A stretch of 11,378 nt of DNA, from the IMG/VR virus record IMGVR_UViG_2681813225_000001, positions 1-11,378 of that record. One strand, 5' to 3'. A program made the position numbers. This stretch comes from a virus. Taxonomy: Duplodnaviria > Heunggongvirae > Uroviricota > Caudoviricetes. Each line of letters starts with the position of its first letter. Position 1 is the first letter of the stretch. Below are positions 9,001-11,378 of the stretch, one piece after another.

Positions 9001-11378
9001 TGGAAACAAAGGAGAAATAGATATGCAATTAAGAAAGTAGCAAAAAATGCAGAAAGATCTTTTGCATTCCCAACGAAGAAACTTGCCATTGAAAGTTTAT
9101 TGCGCCGGAAGAAATACCATTTAATGAGAATCAAACAAGATTTGGCTGTTGTATCAACTCTTGTTGATGGTATGAAGAATATTGATACATCAACACCAGA
9201 TATTGAATATAACTTTGGACACAACCAAGAAACAGAAAATTGGGTATTTTATTAGTACGAATAAGCACTGTGTATTCATTCCAACGAGTGAATACACGGA
9301 GCAATGTCGCTCGTAACTAAACAGGAGCCGACTTGTTCTGATTATTGGAAATCTTCTTTGCCCTCCAATGTGAGGGCGATTTTTTATCTGTGAGGATATG
9401 AACAGATGTCAAACATCAAAAAATACATCATTGATTACGACTGGAAAGCATCAATAGAAATTGAAATCGACCATGACGTAATGACAGAGGAAAAACTTCA
9501 CCAGATTAATAATTTCTGGTCAGACTCTGAATACCGACTCAATAAACACGGCTCTGTATTAAATGCTGTATTAATCATGCTGGCGCAACATGCTCTGCTT
9601 ATAGCAATTTCAAGCGACTTAAATGCATATGGTGTTGTGTGTGAGTTCGACTGGAATGATGGAAATGGTCAGGAAGGATGGCCTTCAATGGATGGTAGCG
9701 AAGGAATAAGAATTACCGATATCGATACATCAGGAATATTTGATTCAGATGATATGACTATCAAGGCCGCCTGAGTGCGGCTTTACCGCATACCAATAAC
9801 GCTTCACTCGAGGCGTTTTTCGTTATGTATAAATAAGGAGCACACCATGCAATATGCCATTGCAGGGTGGCCTGTTGCTGGCTGCCCTTCCGAATCTTTA
9901 CTTGAACGAATCACCCGTAAATTACGTGACGGATGGAAACGCCTTATCGACATACCTAATCAGCCAGGAGTCCCAAAGAATGGATCAAACACTTATGGCT
10001 ATCCAGACTAAATTCACTATCGCCACTTTTATTGGCGATGAAAAGATGTTTCGTGAAGCTGTCGACGCTTATAAAAAATGGATATTAATGCTGAAACTGA
10101 GATCAAGCAAAAGCATTCACTAACCCCATTTCCTGTTTTCCTAATCAGCCTGGCATTTCGCGGGCGATATTTTCACAGCCATTTTCAGGAGTTCAGCCAT
10201 GAACGCTTATTACATTCAGGATCGTCTTGAGGCTCAGAGCTGGGCGCGTCACTACCAGCAGATCGCCCGTGAAGAGAAAGAGGCAGAACTGGCAGACGAC
10301 ATGGAAAAAGGCCTGCCCCAGCACCTGTTTGAATCGCTATGCATCGATCATTTGCAACGCCACGGGGCCAGCAAAAAAGCCATTACCCGTGCGTTTGATG
10401 ACGATGTTGAGTTTCAGGAGCGCATGGCAGAACACATCCGGTACATGGTTGAAACCATTGCTCACCATCAGGTTGATATTGATTCAGAGGTATAAAACGG
10501 ATGAGTACAGCACTCGCAACGCTGGCTGGGAAGCTGGCTGAACGTGTCGGCATGGATTCTGTCGACCCACAGGAACTGATCACCACTCTTCGCCAGACGG
10601 CATTTAAAGGCGATGCCAGCGATGCGCAGTTCATCGCATTGTTGATCGTCGCCAACCAGTACGGCCTTAATCCGTGGACGAAAGAAATTTACGCCTTCCC
10701 TGACAAGCAGAACGGCATCGTTCCGGTGGTGGGCGTTGATGGCTGGTCCCGTATCATCAATGAAAACCAGCAGTTTGATGGCATGGACTTTGAGCAGGAC
10801 AATGAATCCTGTACATGCCGGATTTACCGCAAGGACCGTAATCATCCGATCTGCGTTACCGAATGGATGGATGAATGCCGCCGCGAACCATTCAAAACCC
10901 GCGAAGGCAGAGAAATCACCGGGCCGTGGCAGTCGCATCCCAAACGGATGTTACGGCATAAAGCCATGATTCAGTGTGCCCGTCTGGCCTTCGGATTTGC
11001 TGGTATCTATGACAATGATGAAGCCGAGCGCATTGTCGAAAATACTGCATACACTGCAGAACGTCAGCCAGAACGCGACATCACTCCGGTTAACGATGAA
11101 ACCATGCAGGAGATTAACACTCTGCTGATCGCCCTGGATAAAACATGGGATGACGACTTATTGCCGCTCTGTTCCCAGATATTTCGCCGCGACATTCGCG
11201 CATCGTCAGAACTGACACAGGCCGAAGCAGTGAAAGCTCTTGGATTCCTGAAACAAAAAGCCTCTGAACAGAAGGTGGCTGCATGACACCGGACATTATC
11301 CTGCAGCGTACCGGGATCGACGTGAGAGCTGTCGAACAGGGGGATGATGCGTGGCACAAATTACGGCTCGGCGTCATC

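Follow-up and report, generated by a model that had tools for sequence, protein, structure and literature searches.

Phage lambda carries gam as an in-frame gene of 138 codons, and its protein exists in a long form, GamL, and a 98-amino-acid short form, GamS. The window analysed here (11,378 nucleotides, IMG/VR virus record IMGVR_UViG_2681813225_000001) contains both start codons, yet they open different reading frames, which raises the question of whether this phage carries a broken long gam or a complete short one. The first-pass annotation had pointed out that the ATG at 10078 opens a frame ending at 10228-10230 that is not in register with the gamS ATG at 10199, and had traced the difference to a T-run one base longer than that of a 138-codon lambda gam. 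Every one of these coordinates was confirmed from the sequence, lambda (NC_001416) translates to an in-frame 138-aa Gam, and alignment to it agrees on the longer run and adds a linked C/T change; lambda does not share the run length, its own run being shorter. The difference from lambda therefore stands; its framing as an anomaly of this sequence does not, because the window carries the commoner allele and 98 aa is the norm of the family. We put at roughly 90% the probability that gam of the window is a 98-codon gene starting at ATG 10199, that only a GamS-type product is to be expected and that 10078-10198 is not a broken gam exon.

The gam locus and its two reading frames

The source phage is a Shiga-toxin-type lambdoid prophage, and the stretch represents its early-left (pL) operon. 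The best overall match of the window was Stx2a phage 981509 (99.4% over 88% of the window), and the 611 bases around the leader allele were 99.5-99.7% identical to 933W, BP-4795, phage 86 and many others. Transcription from pL runs along the plus strand, on which cIII, kil, a 75-nt gap, gam and bet follow one another (Table 1); the gam-bet order was common to all related loci examined. Kil was recognized by Pfam Lambda_Kil (70.3 bits) and by PHROG 3924 over profile positions 2-47 of 47, and an identical 144-nt kil is annotated by RefSeq at homologous loci. Records of the 933W style instead give kil as an 89-aa ORF from 9854 (9854-10123) that overlaps cIII, whereas lambda and RefSeq give the 47-aa Kil from 9980; the Kil profiles match the 47-aa part alone of the longer ORF. 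Elsewhere in the window, on the minus strand, we observed a DnaB-like replicative helicase ORF of 797 aa, compared with 458 aa in the close relative Stx2a_WGPS8. A LAGLIDADG homing-endonuclease domain (residues 405-454) divides its DnaB_C domain into two stretches (Pfam), which suggests an intein-containing phage helicase.

Table 1. Features of the window, with positions counted from its first nucleotide
Feature	Position	Strand	Remarks
DnaB-like replicative helicase ORF	1640-4033	-	797 aa
Terminator-like hairpin with T-tail	9798-9827	+	between ea10-like ORF and cIII
Lambda cIII thermoregulator RNA	9834-9892	+	Rfam RF01804, 88.5 bits; at cIII start
cIII	9847-10011	+	first gene listed in pL order
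kil	9980-10123	+	47 aa, MDQTL...SKSIH, stop TAA 10121-10123; ORF list
50-codon ORF	10078-10230	+	ATG 10078-10080, TGA 10228-10230
kil-gamS leader	10124-10198	+	75 nt, read as non-coding
Stop codon TAA in gamS frame	10142-10144	+
Terminator-like hairpin	10148-10175	+	GCCTG/CGGGC, 8-nt loop, then GATATTTTCA; inside kil-gam leader
Leader allele	10180-10185	+	CATTTT, TATTT in lambda; T-run 10182-10185, C at 10180
Shine-Dalgarno AGGAG	10187-10191	+	7 nt before gamS ATG; sequence
gam, GamS form	10199-10495	+	98 aa; host RecBCD nuclease inhibitor by family match
bet	10501-11286	+	RecT-like annealase, 261 aa; next Red operon gene; ORF list and annotation of matching records

The upstream ATG starts an ORF of 50 codons that lies in a separate frame from gamS (10078 mod 3 = 1, 10199 mod 3 = 2). 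It sits 121 nt before the gamS ATG, whereas GamL needs an in-frame ATG 120 nt upstream. The gamS frame itself is shut by the TAA at 10142-10144, with no ATG, GTG or TTG from there to 10199, so that, as the first-pass annotation had held, only the short form can be encoded as a single polypeptide. The strong AGGAG that it had noted before gamS is present too, and the sequence at this Shine-Dalgarno site, TTCAGGAGTTCAGCCATGAACGC, is identical in Salmonella and Citrobacter loci (L128, L130 and L132). Upstream of ATG 10078 the sequence (GCTTATAAAAAATG) showed no Shine-Dalgarno motif.

The upstream ATG exists because of the Kil sequence. It consists of the last A of a Kil Lys codon (10076-10078) and the TG of the following Trp codon (10079-10081), in the context ...AAA AA[A TG]G ATA..., where Kil reads ...KKWIL.... 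Codons 1-15 of the ORF overlap the final 46 nt of kil in a different frame, the remainder falls within the 75 nt that separate kil from gam, and the ORF shares 32 nt with gamS, its stop lying 30 nt inside that gene. Its first 33 or so codons are a homologue of the lambda GamL N terminus, frameshifted thereafter. We also considered it as a chance ORF and rejected this, given that homology and the indel that breaks it. The ORF matched no family in Pfam, PHROG or NCBIfam, and its one annotation, in Stx2 phage 86, is 'gam alternate'.

In our preferred reading, 10078-10198 would be the 3' end of kil (to 10123) followed by a 75-nt untranslated leader with a small hairpin and a ribosome-binding site. 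The leader of lambda, one base shorter, happens to bring the kil-internal ATG into the gam frame, producing the 138-codon frame of GamL. In the window phage and most of its relatives the leader is one T longer, so that this ATG opens a frame of 50 codons instead, which crosses the gam start and closes at 10230. Ribosomes would initiate at 10199 from the AGGAG and produce an 11.5-kDa Gam, and this protein, like lambda GamS, would block the site at which RecBCD binds DNA ends. The upstream frame of 50 codons would be untranslated or an inconsequential by-product. We infer that the window phage makes only the 98-aa Gam, and its near-identity to lambda GamS is the reason to expect that this protein inhibits RecBCD in the same way, by DNA-end mimicry; the 50-codon frame probably has no function of its own.

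The Gam family and divergent gam loci

The Gam of the window matched its family from end to end. Residues 1-98 aligned to positions 1-98 of the 98-position Pfam profile PF06064 (216.8 bits, cut-off 25) and to all 98 positions of PHROG 259 (E = 1.2e-60). Against the structures 5MBV_A and 2UUZ_A it aligned over 1-98 with E of about 2.5e-61, with three substitutions relative to 5MBV_A. The 138-aa lambda protein matched the Gam profiles over residues 41-138 only, and NCBIfam held no model matching Gam. In a homologue search of 5.8 billion proteins, essentially all homologues below about 90% identity were 97-100 aa long among the matches listed; these came from Salmonella, Citrobacter, Raoultella and divergent E. 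coli prophages. Homologues of 138 aa appeared, among the matches listed, only at 98-99% identity. As a side observation, a lambda gam of 98% protein identity appeared in assemblies labelled Shewanella, Pseudomonas, Kitasatospora, Neobacillus, Oceanobacillus, Leeuwenhoekiella and others (L136-L146), frequently on a contig of about 48.5 kb with low coverage; contamination of the assemblies with lambda DNA is the most likely source.

We sampled 15 divergent gam loci (58-85% identity) from about eight enterobacterial genera: Escherichia, Shigella, Salmonella, Citrobacter, Raoultella, Klebsiella, Pseudescherichia and Yokenella, plus an enterobacterium. The encoded Gam was 97-98 aa long in all 15. 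A start for a lambda-like extension was found in none of the 13 loci with a placeable start codon (excluding L150 and L151), where the sole in-frame upstream starts were a TTG at -30, an ATG at -42 and a GTG at -6. At one divergent locus the start of gam and the end of the preceding gene share an ATGA, which leaves no room for an N-terminal extension. An AGGAG, AGGA or GAGG motif preceded the gam ATG in 11/11 divergent loci with readable upstream sequence. These comparisons indicate that the 98-aa gene is the real unit of the Gam family.

The arrangement in the window could also be a derived loss, in which an ancestor made GamL and this lineage gave it up through the +T frameshift, with functional consequence. 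GamL is a reported lambda isoform that outperformed GamS to some extent in a Klebsiella assay (PMC5218532), and the upstream frame is still recognizably lambda-like. Against such a loss, the extension is absent from the sampled divergent loci of other genera, essentially every homologue listed at less than about 90% identity has 97-100 aa, and the 4-T allele is the more frequent of the two and goes with an intact gamS. The lack of an extension in the outgroups, together with the 97-100-aa homologues, means that parsimony favours a gain in the lambda lineage, and we regard the derived loss as unlikely. Outgroup leaders differ in length, and the in-frame state of lambda is likely to be derived. 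Lambda GamL looks like a lineage-restricted N-terminal extension, put together from an out-of-frame piece of kil and the gam leader.

The leader and its alleles among close relatives

Around the T-run the window reads GCCATTTTC and lambda NC_001416 reads GCTATTTC; in the alignment, CACAGCCATTTTCAGGAG stands against CACAGCTA-TTTCAGGAG, that is, one T more and the linked C/T change. We scanned IMG/VR for this site with a pattern that allowed either run length and either C/T base. Among the 120 contigs listed, of at least 120 in all, 86 had CATTTT and 34 had TATTT; with four reference loci added (n = 124), the counts were 89 and 35. Neither mixed type, CATTT or TATTTT, occurred among these 124 loci (the IMG/VR contigs listed, of at least 120, and the four references), and the C/T change and the run length were in perfect linkage. 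Short queries that could seed only across the T-run found the 4-T allele in 2,237 and the 3-T allele in 900 of 5,426 complete E. coli genomes. In GenBank phage records, a set that includes many laboratory lambda derivatives, the numbers were 89 for 4-T and 90 for 3-T. The 4-T and 3-T alleles are two stable haplotypes, and the window has the commoner one.

The CATTTT allele occurs with the same bases in 933W, Stx2 phage 86 and Stx2a 981509. The deposited gam of 933W (NP_049475) is 98 aa long, and the RefSeq pipeline annotates a 98-aa CDS for both 3-T and 4-T leaders. Among the papers searched, none discussed a short-only allele of Stx phages, and searches for ribosome-profiling evidence on the lambda gam start and for lambda tL2 coordinates gave nothing usable. 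The allele had been noticed before, as the deposited gene models show: 98 aa for gam of 933W, and 'gam alternate' for the 50-aa ORF of phage 86. The CATTTT allele is thus real and already catalogued, and the long form of lambda is a minority state.

We compared the long frame and gamS across 111 related loci with sufficient flank. GamS was intact in 109 of them, and an intact GamL could be encoded in 28. An intact gamS stood on the 4-T allele in 80 loci, 46 of which lack the GamL-type ATG because they have no kil. The remaining three comprised one 3-T locus without kil and two with a disrupted gamS. At 47/111 loci a KilR-like gene stands in place of kil, and the GamL-type ATG is absent there. 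This gene (...GIERTYTRDLLVEVFLDGRGNGLNH*), unrelated to kil, precedes a near-identical leader and gam in L012, L015, L016, L028 and 43 others (IMG/VR). Homology to the window restarts at its stop codon, which is the mosaic junction, and continues with the same 75-nt spacer. Since these swaps keep the leader and gamS together, the recombination module is 'leader + 98-codon gam' and not '138-codon gam'.

Smaller changes also break or extend the upstream frame. Both the C-run and the T-run of the leader showed indel polymorphism. In L032, L062 and L098 a single-base change within or next to the C-run reduces the upstream ORF to 21 codons, and loss of the kil stop combined with a C-run change fuses kil, leader and gam into a single frame, giving 171-aa Kil-Gam fusion ORFs (P0002 and P0009). 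We observed both the Lambda_Kil and the Gam domain in the 171-aa ORFs P0002, P0009 and P0010. The kil stop TAA is TAC in haplotypes h1, h19, h30 and h34 (for example L011, L013, L046 and L056), which would lengthen Kil by about seven residues into the leader. Variants of the GamL frame in 3-T alleles were four synonymous and four nonsynonymous (pN/pS about 0.3, compared with 0.38 for gamS), too few to give the power needed for excluding coding constraint in the 3-T lineage. Judged across these loci, the long frame is not a conserved part of the gene; it is evolutionarily labile, and gamS is not.

The leader itself is well conserved, and the hairpin within it may help to explain this conservation without coding. 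A terminator consensus scan matched 10148-10165 plus GATATTTTCA, with five pairs, four of them G-C, and an 8-nt loop. The stem is short, and the minimum free energy fold of the whole leader was no better than those of shuffled sequences (z = -0.93). The position of the hairpin is kept in other genera with weak covariation (RNAalifold of 12 leaders gave a weak five-pair consensus hairpin), and the T-tract is missing from Citrobacter leaders. Scanned against Rfam, the leader gave no match to an RNA family; the cIII thermoregulator farther upstream was the only hit. A second terminator-like hairpin lies ahead of cIII (Table 1); both hairpins, we presume, may be lambda tL2 sites.

Could the 50-codon ORF be functional in itself, by encoding a small protein or by tuning GamS synthesis as an upstream ORF translated across the gamS start? 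It persists with little change in every kil-type 4-T locus, phage 86 carries the 'gam alternate' annotation, and ribosomes that reached its stop, 30 nt inside gamS, would traverse the gamS initiation region. Its overlap with kil and gamS and the very low overall divergence of these phages nevertheless account for that degree of conservation. The ORF also has no protein family match and no Shine-Dalgarno, is absent in KilR-type loci and is cut to 21 aa elsewhere, and we consider such a role very unlikely. There is a slimmer chance still that the frame is translated and either tunes GamS output or, by a rare +1 slip in the U-run, yields a little GamL-like protein. If it were, the 3-T and 4-T leaders would be two regulatory alleles and not a neutral polymorphism.

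A programmed +1 frameshift in the T-run (CAU UUU C to UUC) that joins the 50-codon frame to gamS and makes a GamL-like protein is extremely improbable. The two frames do overlap by 32 nt, gamS is +1 relative to the upstream ORF, and the U-run would allow tRNA-Phe to re-pair just before the overlap. At the site, CAU UUU CAG GAG, the next zero-frame codon is nevertheless the common CAG and not the stop or rare codon of a prfB-type shift, no known +1 stimulator is present, and the AGGAG lies downstream of the site, not upstream. The upstream ATG lacks a Shine-Dalgarno and is missing altogether in 47/111 related loci, indels break the frame in others, and no long form occurs in the sampled divergent loci.

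Finally, the extra T might be a homopolymer sequencing or assembly error in a phage that truly has the in-frame 138-codon gam of lambda, given that the difference sits in a T-run and that single-base errors are frequent on some platforms; we exclude this for practical purposes, because an artefact would neither link to the adjacent C/T substitution nor reappear across platforms and decades, and the identical CATTTT is found in the Sanger-era 933W, 89 GenBank phage records, 86 of the 120 IMG/VR contigs listed (at least 120 in all) and 2,237 complete E. coli genomes.

Comparison with lambda and Shiga-toxin phages

The 98-codon gene, then, is our reading of gam in the window, and it bears on how the lambda model is used. 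The 138-aa lambda model should not be copied to the gam of Stx phages and prophages, nor do these genes deserve a frameshifted-pseudogene flag. What is conserved and nearly universal is the 98-aa GamS, in keeping with its being the form used as a reagent, and the comparative argument for GamS as the conserved gene product is the chief by-product of this analysis. If GamL is a lineage-restricted extension, this also bears on whether it has a role of its own. In the literature GamL counts as a genuine isoform of lambda Gam (PMC5218532, PMC11610958), and the solved Gam structures are of GamS, including that with RecBCD (Wilkinson et al. 2016, PMC5218532). Both forms potentiate quinolones, with GamL somewhat stronger than GamS in some Klebsiella strains (Wilkinson et al. 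2016, PMC5218532). The extension is dispensable for activity, since GamS also potentiates quinolones (PMC5218532); GamL being slightly more effective in one assay, loss of the long form could carry some phenotypic cost.

Among Shiga-toxin phages, 933W and Stx2 phage 86 have the same CATTTT leader and the same 98-aa gam model as the window; phage 86 also has the same 50-aa upstream ORF annotated. Neither shows a difference of substance, and the window is one more copy of their allele. Stx2a_WGPS8, a close relative of the window, has the in-frame GamL form. Lambda GamS (residues 41-138 of lambda Gam; 2UUZ/2UV1, and 5MBV with RecBCD) is likewise 98 aa, collinear throughout and near-identical, the window having I22 where lambda has L and A61 where lambda has S. 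The two gamS genes share the same AGGAG, 7-nt spacer, ATG and site directly upstream of bet. The first 33 codons of lambda GamL (138 aa, NP_040618) match the upstream ORF of the window save for T5A and P25L; the frames then part at the T-run, and no 138-aa product can be encoded in the window. In lambda, gam can also be read from an in-frame upstream ATG, whereas in the window this reading is blocked by the extra T and by the TAA at 10142-10144 in the gam frame.
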